From: an uncultured Gammaproteobacteria bacterium
GTDB lineage: Bacteria; Patescibacteriota; Patescibacteriia; Magasanikbacterales; JBBTXJ01
Assembly (NCBI GenBank): GCA_964610305.1
Contig: CAZSVL010000007.1
Coordinates: 7,742-54,208, forward strand
DNA: 46,467 bases
Direction of reading: 5' to 3'
Shown: positions 4,885 to 45,262 of the stretch, one piece after another
How the letters are laid out: each line of letters begins with the position of its first letter
Numbering within the stretch: position 1 is the first letter of the stretch
Position numbers and translations under genes: made by a program
Notes under the pieces: model-generated
What the model was told of the DNA's origin: nothing
What the model saw: only the letters and a program-made list of their open reading frames with translations
The model's database searches: none

Positions 4885-7659
4885 TTAATCTTCTAGTGAC
4901 GCAAAAAGCTCTTCAATTGAAAGCCGTCTACCCGTCTCTGGGTCAATGGCTCCACTGAGATCTGATTTCCGCAAAAGATTCCTTCTATGCCTGTCTCTTT
5001 CTTTTGGTTTCACATCTAGAGAATTGAGAATCCATTCTACCGTACTCTCAAGATCTTCGGGCAAGTATGACTTGCTACTGCAAAACATAAGCGCTGAGGC
5101 TGTCATCAACGCTTTTTGGTGTGCCGTGGCAGAATCAGGAATGAAATCATTGATTGCCCAAAGCAGCGATGCTTGGTCAAGCACAGCCGTGTTTGTCCTG
5201 CGTGCATGCCGCGCGGCGTGACGCACAATAACTTCAATGTCGGCACCCGTTAGTCCATGCGTAGAGGCGGCGCATCGGGAGTAATCAATGTCGCTGTCCT
5301 CTGCCACGGCAAAGCCATGCCGCCGGATCATCATGTCAAACAGCTGAGCCCGCACTCTATCGTCTGGGAGCAATACAGGCAAACGCTCATCACATCTACC
5401 AGATCGCACCAAAGCAGCATCAAGCAAATCCGGACGGTTGGTAATCTGCACCACAAAAATGCGTCCACGAATAGCAGGATCAGAGAGAAACTGCATTTCT
5501 TTTTGCATCTTGCGCTCAGTTACACCAGAATCCCCATGTTGCTGACCACGCTGTGCTCCACCACCCTGATCAACCTCATCTTTAATCCAAATGCATGGCG
5601 CCAGATCAAACAGCGCCTCGTACGCCATCTCGTCTTTGCGTTCAGTTTCCCCCACCAGCGGATCTCTTGTGTTACGAGACTTCAGGCATAAAATCCCCGT
5701 CTCTTTTGCAAGCGCCATAGCGGCCATAGTTTTGCCGGTTCCAGGTGGTCCGGTTACCAAGCAGCCCATGGGCACAAAGTGGTGATTGCCGGCCTGCATA
5801 TCAAAAGCAACTTCTCTAAAGAGCTCGTGCATGTGCTCATTTCCGCAGATCTGATCAAAGCCAAACACTGGATTAATCACTTCAAACAGATGCCCGTACG
5901 ATTGCTCCAAAAGTTGCTGCCTGTGTTGCAACAAAGCAACCCTATCCACAGCTGAGCCACGAGCTCGTGTGTCGCGCAAGAGGTTAACAATATCTCGGTA
6001 GCCAAACCCCTGCACAATACGCGCAAGCTCGGGCGCTCCCATTTTTGGAATGGCAAAGTAACCCAATGGCCCACTTGCGGCCATGGCTACTTCAATACGC
6101 TGCAAAGCAGATCTGAGCATTCTGATTTTTGCACTATCCGGATTAGCTATCTGCTGCTCATGATAAGCGATTCTCTGCCGAATCTCAGCAGCTTTAGATG
6201 TCCAGCTATCAAGAGCTTTATCAGCTTGCTCCGAGAGCATCCTCCTCATATCTACCAGATGCTTTTGCTCTGCAGTACTGCTCGTATGCGGATTGCCAAT
6301 AGAGCTAAGCAATCCATCTACCTCCAACAGCCTCTGCTGCGCCTGCGCTATCTCAAAGGGTGTACACCAGAGCAATCCGTCCGGTTGGTACGCGACACTC
6401 TTCTCTCCACCGCGCTTCTCCTGTGAATAGATAATCCCATCGCTAAAGCTAAACAACCTATTACACCCATCTCCCACCTGCGCAAGAGTTGGTGCATTGG
6501 GAAGAGAAAGTTCAACTAAACCGCGCCACCTTTTGCGAAATACCCTAAAGGTGCTACTGCGCACGTCTCCCTTTTCAGAAAAACAGATAGTGTCATTTGC
6601 TCTGAGCCGACGCCACTGTTTTGCGCTTGTTAGAGAAGCAAAAGGGTGAGAGGTTCCGTGCTCCAGAATGTTTCTTAGGGTCTCTCGTTCTCTCTCAAGC
6701 TGAATCCGTTCTTTTTCAGCATTGTGTGTCTGAGCCTGAATTTGATCATTAACCATTCCCTCTTGGATGGTTACCGCTTCTCTAAGTGCCCGAACCCCCG
6801 GGTCATGCTCAAGAAAGGTTTCTTTATCAATCTTTAAGTGTCGCTCTAGCTCTGCGTTCTCATCCTCTAGCCGCGCCCTACTCCAAACGCGCGCAACCTC
6901 TTTCTCACTTTCAAAGACCGCCTCAGCTGCAGCCCTATCTTTACTCAAATCTGTAGGCGTTCCTCTACACATGTACTCAAGAAATTTCTGCCGCTCATCC
7001 ACCGATGGCTTATTAACACGAATGCAAAAGACGGGAGAATCTGGTCGTGCCAAGCGCTCATTGACTACCGAGGCCGATGGAGCGCTCATCAAAAGCATAT
7101 GACCAGCTCTGGCAAAATCTTGCATGCTAGCAAGTTGAAGCGCAAACAGAGCAATAGTAATCTCTAGCTTATCTCTTTGACTCTGACTACTGCAGACACT
7201 ATCAACATCTGGCATTACGCCAATAATGGGTCTTTGCTGCCGCGCTGCCTCTTGATAAGCGCGCATGATAAGATCAAATGCCAAATCAAGTCTGGCAGGA
7301 AGCTCTGCAGGTTTTTCATTAAGCGTACCGCGCGCAGTGGCAAATGGATCACCGCTGGTATCTTCTTCTGGCTCTTCTATCAGAGACCTAAACACACCTT
7401 CATCAAATGCTCTTGGAAACTGAAATCCTCTTGCTAAATCGTACTGCCACAACAGTCGTCCGCTCTCACTGAGCGTATGTGCTACTACTGTTTCCCAGCG
7501 ATCCAGCATATCAACCGTTCTTTTGTGTCCAGCCTTTTTGTCAAAAGCTGCTACATCAGAAAGATCAAATCGTGGAAATCCATCCCCCACATTTCCGGTA
7601 AACAAAAAAACGCGGTGCCCTGCCCTCATCGCCTGATCAAACTTTTTTAACCAATGCAT
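4885..7659 (-). CDS. Ycf46-like AAA+ ATPase: degenerate N-terminal AAA module, long coiled-coil insertion, intact C-terminal AAA module
   Basis: Walker A GPPGTGKT, Walker B CIWIKDEVD, SRH TNRPDLLDAALVRSGRCD. N-terminal FLFTGNVGD is a degenerate P-loop. SD AGGAGG. Confidence 0.85.
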   Translation of the reverse strand: MHWLKKFDQAMRAGHRVFLFTGNVGDGFPRFDLSDVAAFDKKAGHKRTVDMLDRWETVVAHTLSESGRLLWQYDLARGFQFPRAFDEGVFRSLIEEPEEDTSGDPFATARGTLNEKPAELPARLDLAFDLIMRAYQEAARQQRPIIGVMPDVDSVCSSQSQRDKLEITIALFALQLASMQDFARAGHMLLMSAPSASVVNERLARPDSPVFCIRVNKPSVDERQKFLEYMCRGTPTDLSKDRAAAEAVFESEKEVARVWSRARLEDENAELERHLKIDKETFLEHDPGVRALREAVTIQEGMVNDQIQAQTHNAEKERIQLERERETLRNILEHGTSHPFASLTSAKQWRRLRANDTICFSEKGDVRSSTFRVFRKRWRGLVELSLPNAPTLAQVGDGCNRLFSFSDGIIYSQEKRGGEKSVAYQPDGLLWCTPFEIAQAQQRLLEVDGLLSSIGNPHTSSTAEQKHLVDMRRMLSEQADKALDSWTSKAAEIRQRIAYHEQQIANPDSAKIRMLRSALQRIEVAMAASGPLGYFAIPKMGAPELARIVQGFGYRDIVNLLRDTRARGSAVDRVALLQHRQQLLEQSYGHLFEVINPVFGFDQICGNEHMHELFREVAFDMQAGNHHFVPMGCLVTGPPGTGKTMAAMALAKETGILCLKSRNTRDPLVGETERKDEMAYEALFDLAPCIWIKDEVDQGGGAQRGQQHGDSGVTERKMQKEMQFLSDPAIRGRIFVVQITNRPDLLDAALVRSGRCDERLPVLLPDDRVRAQLFDMMIRRHGFAVAEDSDIDYSRCAASTHGLTGADIEVIVRHAARHARRTNTAVLDQASLLWAINDFIPDSATAHQKALMTASALMFCSSKSYLPEDLESTVEWILNSLDVKPKERDRHRRNLLRKSDLSGAIDPETGRRLSIEELFASLED

Positions 7660-7688
7660 TGCCCCTCCTGGCTATTTTTTTGTAAAGA

Positions 7689-38129: not shown

Positions 38130-38203
38130 GTCAGGGTAGCTCAGATGGTTAGAGCGCGGGACTCATAACCCCGAGGTCGGGAGTTCGATCCTCCCCCCTG
38201 ACA
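38130..38203 (+). tRNA. tRNA with CAT anticodon (elongator Met or lysidine-type Ile2)
   Basis: GTCAGGG/CCCTGAC acceptor, CGGGA-CTCATAA-CCCCG anticodon arm, GGGAGTTCGATCCTCCC. No encoded CCA. Confidence 0.88.
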
Positions 38204-41147: not shown

Positions 41148-42233
41148 ATGCCTAAAAAAAGCAAAAAAAAGAGCATTGCGCAGATAGAGATCCACAGAAT
41201 TGATAAGATGATCTCTCATCTGTGGCATCATTCCCACAAGCATCGCGTTGCTATGGCCAGCGTTATCTTTTTAATCTTCTTTGCTGTAATTTGGGCGCTC
41301 ATGTTTAAACTTGATTTTAGCAAGCCCAATGAAGAAATTACCTATGGCGTTACGTTCAGCAAACAACACGCAGAATTTTTGCAGCTTAATTGGCAAGACA
41401 ATCTCATAGCTGCACTGGATGATCTAGAAATTAGGCACTTTAGAATCCCAGCATATTGGAGTGAAATAGAACCCGTGGACGATCAGTTTGATTTTTCTGC
41501 ACTTGACTGGCAGATAGAGCAGATAGGCAAGCGAGGCGGCACCGTGATTCTGGCGGTTGGCCAGCGCACACCGCGATGGCCGGAATGCCACATACCTTCT
41601 TGGGCAGAAAATTTGGACACGGGAGCTCAGCAGCAAAAAATTCTTCAGATGTTGCCCGTTGTGATTTCCCGATATGAGGACAACCCTACCATAATCAGAT
41701 GGCAGGTAGAAAACGAGCCGCTCTTAGGACTGTTTGGCGAGTGTCCACGTCCCGACGAGGACTTTTTGCAAAAAGAAATTGCGCTTGTAAGACGCATGGA
41801 TTCCACCAAACCCATAATGAGCACGGCAAGTGGCGAATTAGGCGATTGGGACGGTACAGGAGAGCATGTAGATATTTTAGGCGTATCGCTCTACAGAACC
41901 ATCTGGAAGCCGCTGCTTGGCTATTTTGACTACCCTCTGCCAGCTGCGTTTTACACCCTCAGAGCAAAAGCCACCATGCGCACCGTACCAAAAATTGTCC
42001 TCTCAGAGATGCAGGCAGAACCGTGGCTTCCAGGAGCGCCACCAGATATTCCCTTTGATGAGCAATACAGATCTATGAATTCAGAAGTTTTTGAAGACAC
42101 ACTCGCCTATTCCAGAGCGGCTGGTTTTGATGAAATATACCTCTGGGGGCTGGAGTGGTGGTATTGGCTGAAAACTTCTCACAACAAGCCGGCCATGTGG
42201 GAAACCGCGCGGACTCTTTGGGGAAAAAATTGA
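41148..42233 (+). CDS. membrane-anchored clan GH-A glycoside hydrolase
   Basis: N-terminal TM, YW..IEP, PRWPECH, WQVENEP, SEMQAEPW. Confidence 0.8.
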   Translation: MPKKSKKKSIAQIEIHRIDKMISHLWHHSHKHRVAMASVIFLIFFAVIWALMFKLDFSKPNEEITYGVTFSKQHAEFLQLNWQDNLIAALDDLEIRHFRIPAYWSEIEPVDDQFDFSALDWQIEQIGKRGGTVILAVGQRTPRWPECHIPSWAENLDTGAQQQKILQMLPVVISRYEDNPTIIRWQVENEPLLGLFGECPRPDEDFLQKEIALVRRMDSTKPIMSTASGELGDWDGTGEHVDILGVSLYRTIWKPLLGYFDYPLPAAFYTLRAKATMRTVPKIVLSEMQAEPWLPGAPPDIPFDEQYRSMNSEVFEDTLAYSRAAGFDEIYLWGLEWWYWLKTSHNKPAMWETARTLWGKN

Positions 42234-42356
42234 AAAGAATTGTAGTATATAATTTGACGAACCCTCCTCTCTCTTTGCACATACCTTCGTCCGACTTCGC
42301 CGGACTCCGGGGACTTAACATCAGCATCGCGGAGGGTTATTTCGCTAACGCGAAAT

Positions 42357-42386
42357 AAAAAAATGCCGTATCTCAGATACACGGCA
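42357..42386 (-). terminator. intrinsic terminator of the large RNA
   Basis: Minus strand TGCCGTGTATCTGAGATACGGCA followed by T7. Confidence 0.8.
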
Positions 42387-43809
42387 GGAGATGAAGGTGA
42401 TAGGAAGTTCACCATCTTCTGGTCCTGCTAGACTGTTTCTAAGGTTTTAACGCCCTAGTCATATCTTGCAGAATCATCTCTTTATTTGGTAAGCCTTTTT
42501 GCGCTGACAACGCTTTTGATAGGCAAACATCTCACCGAACCCTTAACCTGCGTTAACAAGTCCTCGGGACCAGATTCCGATACGCTACTACTACAGAGCT
42601 GATCATTCTCGTCGCTACCGCGTCTTCCGAAGAATACGCCGTTTACCAGAGACTAACCACCTTCCGCAGATGCACCACTACTTTTGATCGCAAGACGTCC
42701 GAAGACTTCCCGCAAAGTAGCTCTGCCCAAATCATTGGTCATATCGGTTTTTCCGTTTTTACTTTGTCCACTTGCGTGGTTCCTAATGCTCTCCAGGCTT
42801 TTTTACGGCCTGTTTTCAGATTAAGCTGCCTGCGCAAGCGCAAACTTCTTTATCTTCAGATCACATCCAAAGTTTTGAGGCGTGAGGATGGAATTCCTCT
42901 TTTACCCATCTGCTTTCAGTCCTCCAGCCACTTGCGCAGCTAAAGTTCCTATACCTTGGTGCATCGGATGCACTTCCGGTCAACTTCTGCCATTGTCCTC
43001 CGCCGCGCAAGCGCAACGGACTTCTCTGGCATCAACGATGGATACTGACTTTTATTCACTTCCTTGATTAAACGATCACGCTACTTAGAATCACGGCCCT
43101 TTTTACGGGGCTGCGAAACTTATAGTAGTGCGTCTGCGCGTCTCCCTCTAGATGAAACCGAAGTCTCACATTTCAGGATTAACGCAGCAACCTCACTCTC
43201 TCAAAGATGCGTACCTCTCCTCTCACAGAGAGATCATCAGCATTGGCTTTTGCGTGCTTGTTCTTCTGATAACCTGTTCCAACGATCCCAGTGGCGAGAA
43301 CTCTTTCCCCCAAGGTTTCCCCCAGAGTAGCCCAAGGTTTCCCCCAAGCAAAGCTCAGCTTCTGAAAACGTCTTTGGCAAGATGTTCCGATCTTACCCAG
43401 CAGCTCCACATCCGCAGTCCGAAGACCACAGTGTTTTACTACAGACAGGTGCTCAAACACACCGCGTTGCCTCTTGAGTGCTCTTTCCGCTCGCTCTCAC
43501 GAATGGTTTTTGCACGGTTGTAATGATCTGGGTGTCAACCTTTTCATCAAAACCCTCAACGTACTCGGCTTACACATTAACTAGTCTGAACCTGTTGCTA
43601 TTGCCCCAGGTGACCCAGAGCCTCGGTGATACCGCTGCGGAGGTTTTACCCCCACGCATCGGCCGCCGTACGCTCCAGATTCCACTACGGTTTTTTAGGC
43701 CGCAATGTCTGCTAGCACTGTGCTTATCTTTAGAGCAGCTTTGTTTCACGCTGCGTCTGGGAAGCCAATTCCCCATCGCTTTTGACGGCAGTAACCGTTT
43801 TTGGCGACA
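42357..43809 (-). ncRNA. candidate giant structured non-coding RNA (~1.45 kb)
   Basis: No credible ORF. Promoter at 43816-43844, terminator at 42357-42386, four cUUCGg and several GNRA hairpins, all on the minus strand. Confidence 0.75.
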
Positions 43810-43815
43810 AGAGTT

Positions 43816-43844
43816 ATACTACATGAGCTACAATATGGTGTCAA
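43816..43844 (-). promoter_or_regulatory. sigma70-type promoter of the large RNA
   Basis: Minus strand TTGACA(43844-43839)-17 nt-TAGTAT(43821-43816). Confidence 0.7.
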
Positions 43845-43852
43845 GTATTACA

Positions 43853-43950
43853 TGTGGATAACCTATTTTTTGGCTAAAATATAACAAAAAAATTGGCCTC
43901 TTGCGCCAATTTTTTTGATCACCAATGACAATCTATGCAACTTATCCACA
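43853..43950. promoter_or_regulatory. two consensus DnaA boxes flanking a terminator hairpin
   Basis: TGTGGATAA 43853-43861 and TTATCCACA 43942-43950; AAAAAAATTGGC/GCCAATTTTTTT hairpin between them. Confidence 0.55.
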
Positions 43951-43952
43951 TT

Positions 43953-44750
43953 TTAGAGTATTTCTACGGACGAAACCGTCTCAAATTCAAGCAAAGTCTT
44001 TAAAATTTGCCTCCGTGCCAACCTTTTATCACATTGACCTTTTATTTCGTCAAAAGCGTTAGATAATCTCACCTTTGCTTTTCCATCTTCTATCACAAGG
44101 CTCTCTAGACTTACCCCAAAGGGCATGGCGGTATAGGTACCCTCGTCTTTTTCACGTTGTGTTGGACCAGCAAAAAGAAGCTCTAATGCCGCAGAGCCTA
44201 CCGCCGGTGTTTTTGGCACCATACGCTCATACGCCTGCACCTTACTGCAATGACCTTCTCTTGGCGCAAAAAATACAAGCAACGGAACCTGCTCGCTTGC
44301 AACTTCCAATGGCACCTTAACCATATTTATAGGCAAACCGCTTTTTGCAGACTCCTCGTAAACCTCAAGCGTAATGAGATCTCCAGGCTCTCCTTGAAAC
44401 TCAACCGCTCTTAAAAAGGGACCAGGAATATGCATATCTGGCTGCTGCGCCGTTGCAAAAGAGGTGCCCACCTCATTTCCCTGCTGGTCTCTAATGCCGA
44501 TCACTACGGTACCCTCAAATGCTCGAGCCTGTCCCGTAACAATAAGAGGGCTAGCCACTAGTGCATGAGCTTTTGGCAGCGTGACTTCTATATCATTGTT
44601 AGATACAACAACAATAGGCTCATCCTCCTCTAAAGAATTTTCTATTTGAGCGGTCGGTGCCACCACACCACCACGCGCGTCAATCCAAATAAATACTACC
44701 AAAAAAACAAGGGCAAGCGCCCCCATCAGTATCCATTTTTTCTTTTTCAT
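43953..44750 (-). CDS. membrane-anchored Gmad2 Ig-like plus GerMN domain protein
   Basis: P......SPL.V.G.ARAFEG, ALELLFAGPT..E, QI.KTL..F..V..VEI. ATG 44750 overlaps the upstream stop (ATGA). Confidence 0.85.
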   Translation of the reverse strand: MKKKKWILMGALALVFLVVFIWIDARGGVVAPTAQIENSLEEDEPIVVVSNNDIEVTLPKAHALVASPLIVTGQARAFEGTVVIGIRDQQGNEVGTSFATAQQPDMHIPGPFLRAVEFQGEPGDLITLEVYEESAKSGLPINMVKVPLEVASEQVPLLVFFAPREGHCSKVQAYERMVPKTPAVGSAALELLFAGPTQREKDEGTYTAMPFGVSLESLVIEDGKAKVRLSNAFDEIKGQCDKRLARRQILKTLLEFETVSSVEIL

Positions 44751-45262
44751 AGACTCATTCTTATCCAATCATATATACCGTCTGCCCCCAAAGTGATTGC
44801 AGTAACAATAAAGGCTGCAAGAATGATACCGCCTAAAATAAACGGGAGGGCCAATTTTTTTGGAATGCCAAAAAGCCATGCCGCTACAGAGCCAGTCCAT
44901 GAACCGGTCAAAGGCAAGGGAATTCCGACAAAAAACATGAGGGCAAGCGCTCCGTATTTAGCATGTTTTTTAGCAAATTTACGATCCGTGCGCGCAAAAA
45001 CCCAATCCCAAAACCTTTTGCATGTCTTAGATTTTTTAGAGCACCACTCGCTTGCGGGAGCAATTAGATACAAAATAAACAGGGCAGGAATCAAATCTCC
45101 CACAACAGAATAAAATATAGCCTGCCAAACCGGCAAATCATATATAGTTATAGCTATAGGCACTGATGCACGCAGCTCTGTTACCGGAATCATGGCAATT
45201 AAAAAAGTAGCCAGCTGCGGCGGCAGGGACGAAAACCAATCTATAAATATGTGTGGATCCAT
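44747..45262 (-). CDS. putative small multi-drug export protein (COG2426)
   Basis: MIPVTELRASVPIA, FVGIPLPLTGSWTG. Confidence 0.9.
   Translation of the reverse strand: MDPHIFIDWFSSLPPQLATFLIAMIPVTELRASVPIAITIYDLPVWQAIFYSVVGDLIPALFILYLIAPASEWCSKKSKTCKRFWDWVFARTDRKFAKKHAKYGALALMFFVGIPLPLTGSWTGSVAAWLFGIPKKLALPFILGGIILAAFIVTAITLGADGIYDWIRMSL

Follow-up and report, generated by a model that had tools for sequence, protein, structure and literature searches.

The minus strand of the 46.5 kb window analysed here most probably carries, at positions 42357-43809, a real, conserved and structured stand-alone non-coding RNA (ncRNA) gene of a new family, one that is found in neither Rfam nor the literature searched. 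The window, by which we mean the whole stretch of DNA under study, corresponds to positions 7742-54208 of contig C7 of genome G000 (1.09 Mb in 26 contigs; 99.57% completeness). An earlier note on this DNA had offered two readings of the region: a much-expanded GOLLD-like RNA, or an undescribed class of giant RNA in bacteria of the candidate phyla radiation (CPR). The former finds no support, given the absence of any Rfam model match in the RNA or in four homologous loci, whereas the latter is favoured by the existence of homologues with compensatory changes and, again, by the lack of a family match. The locus combines a conserved promoter and terminator, no conserved reading frame and compensatory changes in base pairs, albeit weaker ones in a less biased test. 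As each test of membership in a known family failed, the RNA appears to be categorically new at the level of the RNA family; taken loosely, as one more of the large ornate RNAs of bacteria without a known function, it falls into a category that exists already.

The candidate lies in a gap of 1,719 nt that is devoid of any credible open reading frame (ORF), between a plus-strand stop at 42233 and a minus-strand stop at 43953, much as the earlier note had described it. Within this gap, a scan for promoters and terminators returned both of the minus-strand signals that had been named there, a sigma-70-type promoter and a hairpin-U7 terminator, and zero further promoter-like or terminator-like sites on that strand between them (the coordinates of these and other features are collected in Table 1). 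Ahead of the promoter is a TTATCCACA box, identical in sequence to the DnaA-box consensus. The gene upstream encodes a protein with Gmad2 and Germane domains, and is kept separate from the RNA promoter by a terminator of its own; on the opposite side of the RNA, Pfam identifies glycoside hydrolase genes. The body of the RNA has a GC content of 0.47-0.52, i.e. it is not A+T-rich, with a GC skew of -0.16 to -0.22 on the plus strand. A contig of 2,650 nt, from a separate assembly of one DNA sequencing run, spans 42265-44400 with 0 differences; as that run may be the source sample, the contig shows contiguity rather than independence. A search of a sequencing-run index gave one DNA run with the stretch (possibly the source sample) and no RNA run among the matches listed.

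A TTATCCACA box set 8 nt ahead of a TTGACA -35 hexamer is apparently a common promoter layout: other loci of G000 have it too, and the wider motif, of 18 bases, occurs in at least 119 metagenome stretches (including loci L065-L144), mostly before ordinary genes. The box sequence is present 28 times in G000, and literature searches (supplementary files lay outside their scope) found no paper combining it with 'candidate phyla radiation'. A second perfect copy, in the opposite orientation, is located at the very end of the Gmad2/Germane gene (43942-43950, plus strand), ~80 bp from the promoter box. At the other end of the RNA, a 23-nt stretch just past the terminator (42340-42362) is identical at positions 60470-60492 of contig C4 in G000, and 42333-42362 is also common to a third contig of the DNA run; it looks like a short dispersed repeat.

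Homologues of the RNA were found by synteny. BLAST searches with the RNA against 60 relatives and 240 genomes of the order yielded chance-level matches only, of 17-38 nt, the best of which (E 2e-4) covers the promoter box rather than the RNA; the true homologues were missed. The homologue search that had been suggested gave nothing by BLAST; four loci came to light through synteny. Three other species of the same bacterial family (G001, G002 and G003) each possess an orthologue of the Gmad2/Germane protein, with 43-44% identity, and in each of them this gene has an ORF-poor stretch behind it on its own strand; a metagenome scan with the promoter motif added a fourth locus, L143, the RNA of which is 88% identical to that of G001 (874/998 aligned positions). 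The layout is the same in all five loci: the Gmad2/Germane gene is immediately upstream; the succession of box, 8 nt, TTGACA, 17 nt and TAnnnT is present with identical spacing; and a GC-rich hairpin with a T run closes the unit. The distance from the -10 hexamer to this hairpin and T run is 1,018 nt in G001, 1,067 nt in G002, 1,119 nt in L143 and 1,452 nt in the window. In G003, it is 1,358 nt, including a 100-N gap with duplicated flanks (L062 5038-5137; ~55 nt are duplicated on either side of the N run); this is probably a scaffolding artefact, the true length being nearer 1.2 kb.

Coding capacity was assessed in the window and across the homologues. The longest ORFs in the gap comprise 127, 123 and 88 amino acids (aa) on the plus strand, and 93 aa on the minus strand. 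All six frames contain between 12 and 35 stops, and, because each frame has all three stop-codon types, no recoding would open one. Pfam returned 0 families for the four ORFs inside the region, the 93-aa sense ORF included, and for one adjoining it. Six-frame peptides of the five RNAs have nothing in common beyond nucleotide identity; for G001 and L143, peptide similarity is seen in every frame and switches frame along the sequence. The comparison, therefore, supports a non-coding RNA region with no reading frame conserved among the five homologues.

The evidence for a conserved structure is concentrated in the two ends. An alignment of four sequences with MAFFT and RNAalifold gave partial structures for the 5' block, whereas the 3' block was misaligned and produced 0 pairs. 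As the sequences are too diverged for this approach, covariance models were built from G002 and G003 only and then used to guide the alignments: R1 for the 5' domain (264 positions and 43 pairs, with the structure assigned by hand), and R2 for the 3' domain (161 positions and 32 pairs). Both models match the window from end to end, R1 at 43587-43811 with 34.5 bits (E 1.8e-9) and R2 at 42355-42525 with 31.8 bits (E 1.5e-6). R1 also matches G001 (21.6 bits) and L143 (20.4 bits), in each case exactly at the inferred start of the RNA, and R2 matches L143 (27.7 bits) and G001 (22.5 bits), in each case exactly at its inferred end. In a search of 1.02 Mb, the window and G001 still stand out with the end-domain models. 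That both ends of a 1.45 kb unit are homologous to both ends of units of 1.0-1.36 kb argues for a single transcript.

Compensatory changes were counted in model-guided alignments of the five sequences, with 500 shuffles and slid versions of the structure as controls. Within the 5' domain, 93.6% of the cells are paired (84.1 +/- 1.7 in the shuffles) and 13 of the 43 pairs are changed on both sides (6.3 +/- 1.7 in the shuffles); 0/500 shuffles reach either value, and the slid controls give 28-55% paired cells and 0-5 such pairs. For the 3' domain, the equivalent values are 97.8% (73.2 +/- 3.1) and 16/32 pairs (8.9 +/- 1.8), again reached by 0/500 shuffles, with slid controls at 38-48% and 1-5 pairs. 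The covariation check that the earlier note had called for, run here by shuffle counts, thus finds compensatory changes in both end domains, among five related sequences. In helix H2 of the 3' domain, which has seven pairs, the relatives join GAGGUGA with UCACCUC, in the window one pair is changed on both sides, and 35/35 cells are paired across the five sequences. Moreover, all seven modelled pairs of the terminator stem are changed on both sides in some sequence, and independent minimum-energy folds of four 3' domains adopt the same architecture.

Within the 5' domain (43640-43680 and 43587-43615), the 5' strand of P5, a GGAAUCUGGAG-like sequence, has two possible partner strands downstream, which resemble each other and of which one overlaps with hairpin P6; every member of the family permits both pairings. 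This may reflect an alternative way of folding, or may simply follow from the similarity of the sequences. A complementarity between the loop of P2 and a strand, noticed by eye, was dropped, as 5-7-mers recur by chance at such a length.

The folded character of the RNA, which the earlier note had proposed, is corroborated by hairpin density and folding energy in addition to the compensatory changes in the homologues. CTTCGG occurs on the minus strand at 42627, 42699, 43158 and 43419, and nowhere on the plus strand inside the region; these four account for 4 of the 11 matches in the whole window, both strands considered. The positions that had been given for four cUUCGg-capped stems are, therefore, exact, but stems of at least four uninterrupted pairs are found for only two of them, the other two having three pairs and then a mismatch. 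The GCAA hairpin reported at 42768-42779 is present, with a 4-pair stem. A count of UUCG, GNRA and CUUG loops closing stems of four pairs or more, made across the whole genome and on both strands in windows of 1.5 kb, gave nine or more such hairpins in 8 of 8,442 windows: three fall in the RNA region, four in a non-coding region of contig C3 and one in 16S ribosomal RNA (rRNA). Indeed, the hairpin-loop density of the RNA region equals that of the 16S rRNA of the same genome. In a complete relative, G027, the same scan ranked two regions highest, which Rfam identified as 23S rRNA and as the gene for 16S rRNA together with the flank upstream of it; the measure, therefore, does pick out RNA that is folded in the manner of rRNA.

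Folding energies, calculated for 360-nt windows against 20 dinucleotide shuffles each, gave z-scores of -3.7, -1.7, -2.2 and -3.9 on the sense strand, and of -2.0, +2.2, -1.5 and -0.5 (mean -0.45) on the antisense strand. The mean for the sense strand is -2.9 in the window RNA and -4.8, -3.4 and -3.5 in the relatives, each being below that of its own antisense strand. A-rich hairpin loops of the CCUAAAAA type occur at 2.0-2.9 per kb in three of the five RNAs, compared with 0.23 per kb genome-wide; the idea that they constitute a repeated binding site was rejected, as there is no enrichment in G002 or G003.

Between the end domains is a central region that is variable among the relatives and expanded in the window. 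By k-mer chaining, it has few motifs in common with them (an example is the hairpin at 42885-42898), and these are separated by window-specific insertions. From the sequence comparison, we infer a family with conserved ends and a fast-evolving, expanded middle; that the window RNA is its longest member is due to the insertion of extra hairpins, including those capped by UUCG and GAAA.

A number of points weigh against reading the locus as a conserved, structured RNA gene of this size. Conservation of the central ~1 kb, which is what makes the RNA giant, is not shown: a model of the mid-domain built from G001 and L143 (R3; 223 columns) picks up no more than a 14-nt hairpin in the window (E 0.74), and G002 and G003 give no match. 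Five sequences are known, of which three come from one genus and two are 88% identical; as they are related, the shuffle control overstates significance and, additionally, the alignments used for the pair counts were fitted to the structure of the model. In a less biased test, the minimum-energy fold of one RNA was read in its close relative and compared with 5,000 simulations. For the G001/L143 pair (88% identical), 32 of the 60 changed pairs are kept in one direction (26.1 +/- 3.1 in the simulations, 179/5,000 being as high) and 31 of 50 in the reverse direction (23.3 +/- 3.0; 33/5,000 as high), whereas G002 read in G003 gives 65/195 (59.0 +/- 5.8; 867/5,000 as high), which is not significant. 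The complete genome G027 of a sister family (963,177 nt) holds no match to R1 or R2 better than E 0.045, and the positive controls were recovered in that search. Expression, ends and stability of the RNA are all inferred from sequence. Neither a complementarity-based target nor an adjoining partner gene with the look of an RNA-binding protein was found in the data, and a fundamental catalytic role is made less likely by the limited distribution of the family and by how quickly its sequence changes.

Membership of known families was tested with cmscan and the 4,227 models of Rfam 15, the Infernal check that the earlier note had advised, and no family matched. At the gathering score, the whole window gives only four transfer RNAs (tRNAs). 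With E values up to 10, nothing relevant is seen between 42100 and 44000: there are four matches of 46-88 nt that score 15-21 bits, and three of these fall within the promoter area. The four homologous loci, searched with E values up to 1, have no Rfam match on the RNA, the only matches being to tRNAs and, weakly, to a rimP leader outside it. GOLLD, ROOL and OLE, the models of which are presumably included in Rfam, match neither the window RNA nor the homologous loci. The small-subunit rRNA model RF00177 has a single match in the genome, on contig C18, and none in the window; no group II intron model matches, the RNA has its own promoter and terminator, and its ORFs are without a Pfam family. 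RNase P RNA, transfer-messenger RNA (tmRNA) and 6S RNA are likewise not recognized in the region, the genome's own copies or matches being elsewhere (Table 1). The lack of rRNA, tmRNA, RNase P and group II motifs that had been noticed by eye is, thus, confirmed by the models. For signal recognition particle (SRP) RNA, no model matches the region at E up to 10. Moreover, neither RF00169 (small) nor RF01854 (large) matches anywhere in G000 at E up to 1 in a pre-filtered search; as this pre-filter also lost true positives of R1, the SRP RNA of G000 is unlocated rather than absent. A fuzzy search with an SRP domain-IV motif gave two irrelevant matches. Neither is the genomic context that of GOLLD, with its phages and tRNA islands: there is no match to the RNA among 50,697 phage records (blastn in distant mode), and the nearest tRNA of the window (38130-38203) is ~4 kb away. 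Our literature searches found no description of a large RNA from CPR bacteria or Patescibacteria.

Could the RNA nevertheless be a known family in disguise, namely an expanded GOLLD, ROOL or OLE RNA, an ORF-less group II intron, a divergent rRNA of small-subunit type, or a hyper-expanded RNase P RNA, tmRNA or SRP RNA? Its length is close to that of 16S rRNA, neither bacterial SRP RNA model matched in G000, and GOLLD likewise has one conserved and one less conserved part, according to passages of PMC12286853. A CACCUCC-like motif near the 3' end of the relatives also recalls rRNA. However, this motif is one strand of the 7-pair helix H2; in the window it reads CAUCUCC and its partner has changed with it, suggesting a structural role rather than that of an anti-Shine-Dalgarno sequence. 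The Rfam models, as described, recognize nothing relevant, the authentic genes for 16S, 23S and RNase P RNA and for tmRNA are elsewhere, and the promoter and terminator, the fixed genomic place, the absence of flanking exons and of a reverse transcriptase, and the lack of a BLAST match in the phage records are all at odds with a disguised family, which we regard as very unlikely. Somewhat less improbable, although still unlikely, is a long structured transcript the function of which does not reside in the whole fold, such as a precursor of small RNAs or a carrier of small-protein ORFs with structured leaders. Only the two ends are demonstrably conserved while the middle varies freely, and sense-strand ORFs of 68 and 93 aa exist; but no peptide shows more conservation than follows, in all frames alike, from 88% nucleotide identity, the 93-aa ORF has no Pfam family, no promoter-like or terminator-like site interrupts the sense strand, a long-range helix is part of the 3' domain, and the RNA folds better than shuffles over its whole length.

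A decayed protein gene, or the remnant of a mobile element, with incidental hairpins might account for the fast evolution, for the lack of a BLAST nucleotide homologue in the 240 genomes of the order, and for the lower number of stops in one plus-strand frame (12 in 572 codons). The last of these is attributable to the pyrimidine-rich antisense strand, as reflected in the GC skew. A dead gene would not keep its promoter, terminator, position and compensated helices across genera, there is no conserved frame, and the ORFs have 0 Pfam families (no large protein database was searched with them); taken together, we consider this explanation extremely unlikely. The least probable is an element that acts at the level of DNA, for instance a region resembling a replication origin, to which the two perfect TTATCCACA boxes at the upstream edge (43853-43861, minus strand, and 43942-43950, plus strand) would lend themselves. 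A box 8 nt before the -35 hexamer is, however, the common arrangement already described, found mostly at ordinary genes; the body is not A+T-rich; and strand-specific folding that depends on G-U pairs, together with the covariation of pairs, are properties of RNA.

Returning to a structured RNA gene as the preferred reading, the following picture may be drawn. Transcription of the RNA would start at a strong sigma-70-type promoter dedicated to it, with the TTATCCACA box in front, and would stop at an intrinsic terminator that likewise belongs to the RNA alone. The conserved 5' and 3' domains hold their helices via compensatory changes, and lineage-specific hairpins have been inserted into the middle, accounting for a length of 1.45 kb compared with ~1.0-1.1 kb in three relatives. 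The product would be stable and architectural in role, taking the form of a compact particle by itself or together with proteins, and would neither base-pair with messenger RNAs nor code for protein. By analogy with OLE, ROOL and GOLLD, an architectural RNA or ribonucleoprotein particle is our leading guess as to function, although a tentative one; it best fits the strong stand-alone promoter, the folding over the full length, the conserved terminal domains (one with a long-range helix), a middle that freely accepts inserted hairpins, and the lack of a complementarity-based target and of an RNA-binding-like partner gene nearby. A decoy that titrates a protein is a less likely function, a ribozyme is less likely again, and a precursor cut into smaller RNAs is the least likely of the four.

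The family is present in all four species available for its bacterial family and in one metagenome contig and has, so far, been seen only in these five loci of one small family. Scans with the Gmad2/Germane protein gave 130 metagenome and 101 species-genome pattern hits, none of which was confirmed, and L143 was the sole match of R1 among 80 metagenome loci with the promoter motif. Pre-filtered whole-genome searches with R1 (151 and 40 genomes) missed the known positives G000 and G001 and are, therefore, uninformative on other families. In G027, only two ORF-free gaps exceed 1,250 nt, both holding rRNA genes; an extra match of R1 in this genome (13.6 bits) was rejected, as it overlies a tRNA and ordinary genes. 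A CPR origin of the window is consistent with the size and completeness of the G000 assembly. The nearest protein-atlas clusters of one window protein belong to Doudnaibacteriota, Minisyncoccota, Woeseibacteriota and Roizmaniibacteriota, which is a lead towards such an origin rather than a proof.

G000 contains a second candidate for a giant ncRNA, of ~1.9 kb, on contig C3. With 11 tetraloop hairpins per 1.5 kb, it reaches the highest such density of the whole genome; it matches no Rfam model at E up to 0.01 and has no BLAST relative in the 240 genomes. There is no similarity between it and the window RNA by BLAST, nhmmer or models R1-R3; compared with its own genome, the window RNA matches only itself. 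Both G002 and G003 show a similar promoter and 5' motif downstream of the orthologous neighbour gene of the second candidate, followed by hairpin-rich sequence. Nearby, 26 tRNA matches are packed within 3.9 kb, all on the minus strand (C3 73,636-77,535; L029 1137-5036), and this array is flanked by the tmRNA gene (~2 kb away) and, on the other side, by the second candidate, forming what might be called an 'RNA island'; ARAGORN counts 63 tRNA genes in the 1.09 Mb of G000. A further locus, at ~103,014-103,345 on the plus strand of contig C1 (in L037), has a TTGACA promoter with a TTATCCACA box, and then ~270 nt that are GC-rich and able to form hairpins, closed by a terminator. It lies just upstream of small ORFs resembling translation factors and ribosomal proteins, has no Rfam match at E up to 0.01, and may be an unrecognized small RNA.

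Table 1. Positions of the candidate RNA, its parts and neighbours in the window, and of other RNA loci in G000 (contig or locus given where outside the window numbering)
Feature	Position	Strand	Details
Candidate RNA transcript, ~1.45 kb	42357..43809	-	Ends inferred, not mapped: ~7 nt past the -10 hexamer; T run
Sigma-70-type promoter	43816..43844	-	TTGACA-17-TAGTAT; 10/12 matches
TTATCCACA box	43853..43861	-	8 nt upstream of the -35 hexamer; in 5/5 homologous loci, equal spacing
Conserved 5' domain, ~225 nt	43587..43811	-	R1; P1 (with P1a), P2, P3, P3a, three-way junction P5/P5a/P6
Central region	42526..43586	-	Short motifs shared only; variable among relatives, expanded in the window; UUCG, GNRA and CUUG hairpins
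Conserved 3' domain, ~170 nt	42355..42525	-	R2; compound hairpin H1, long-range helix H2 enclosing hairpins, terminator
Helix H2, 5' strand	42474..42480	-	GAGAUGA; pairs with 42388-42394
Helix H2, 3' strand	42388..42394	-	UCAUCUC; relatives UCACCUC, resembling an anti-Shine-Dalgarno sequence
Intrinsic terminator	42357..42386	-	8-pair stem, 7-nt loop, T7; 42386-42364 in the promoter/terminator scan; hairpin and T run in 5/5 loci
Terminator of the Gmad2/Germane gene	43885..43917	-	13-pair stem; scan
Gmad2 and Germane domain protein, upstream neighbour	43953..44768	-	Pfam; syntenic anchor of the RNA
Glycoside-hydrolase-like gene	41148-42233	+	Pfam; convergent
16S rRNA	C18:7870-9196		RF00177
23S rRNA	C3		
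RNase P RNA	C5:13853-14305		131.4 bits
tmRNA	C3:71344-71706		
6S-like match	C5:66259-66411		E 2.6e-4, below cut-off
Second giant ncRNA candidate, ~1.9 kb	C3 ~78,289-80,160 (L029 ~5783-7660)	-	
Promoter of the second candidate	L029 7694-7666		TTGACA-17-TATACT; 11/12 matches
Terminator of the second candidate	L029 5808-5789		Internal terminator-like hairpin at 6640-6611

To our knowledge, few bacterial RNAs besides rRNA exceed 600-800 nt and fold throughout. ROOL, for example, has a length of roughly 600 nt; OLE, GOLLD and ROOL have all proved structurally remarkable, and their functions are still open. A family of 1.0-1.45 kb with covarying end domains would, therefore, widen the size range of large bacterial RNAs and, as far as our searches show, would be the first such RNA tied to the CPR, or Patescibacteria, bacteria with tiny genomes and many unknown functions. 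Since BLAST and the pre-filtered model searches missed all of the homologues and synteny found them, similar RNAs may be widely overlooked. The sequence, the inferred ends and the five homologues present a concrete target for electron cryomicroscopy, chemical probing and a search for partners. A bolder proposal, which we regard as doubtful, is that this CPR family possesses at least two unrelated giant ornate RNAs (one of 1.0-1.45 kb, and one of ~1.9 kb beside a tRNA array), that these would be the largest stand-alone structured bacterial ncRNAs known apart from rRNA, and that they would fold into RNA-only or RNA-protein machines (cages, scaffolds or catalysts), taking over tasks for which reduced genomes have no proteins.

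Among known systems, GOLLD, ROOL and OLE are the closest, and the passages of PMC12286853 that deal with them describe all three as folding into particles, alone or with proteins. GOLLD members, in the same passages, are often >800 nt and are conserved in their 3' part but variable in their 5' part; they are found in phages and prophages, often near tRNA islands (PMC12286853). Like GOLLD, the window RNA is a bacterial RNA that stands alone, is very large and structured in several domains, has no known function and shows mosaic conservation; it differs in that its family is longer (1.0-1.45 kb), conserved at both ends and variable in the middle, without an Rfam match, and situated at a fixed chromosomal place behind the Gmad2/Germane gene with no phage match. 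ROOL, which those passages associate with phages and tRNA islands (PMC12286853), is comparable as a large ornate RNA without a known protein partner or function, and as a candidate for an RNA-only particle, whereas its host lineage and context are different and its Rfam family does not match. OLE is an RNA of ~600 nt from Bacillota that is well conserved in sequence and has dedicated partner proteins; like it, the window RNA is chromosomal, large and highly structured and, by analogy, may scaffold a ribonucleoprotein complex, but it is twice as long, fast-evolving, found in CPR-like bacteria, without an identified partner and without an Rfam match. The rRNAs and RNase P RNA have no homology to the window RNA, their genuine genes being elsewhere; the likeness is one of architecture only, and extends to a conserved core, lineage-specific expansion hairpins, UUCG and GNRA loops and A-rich linkers.

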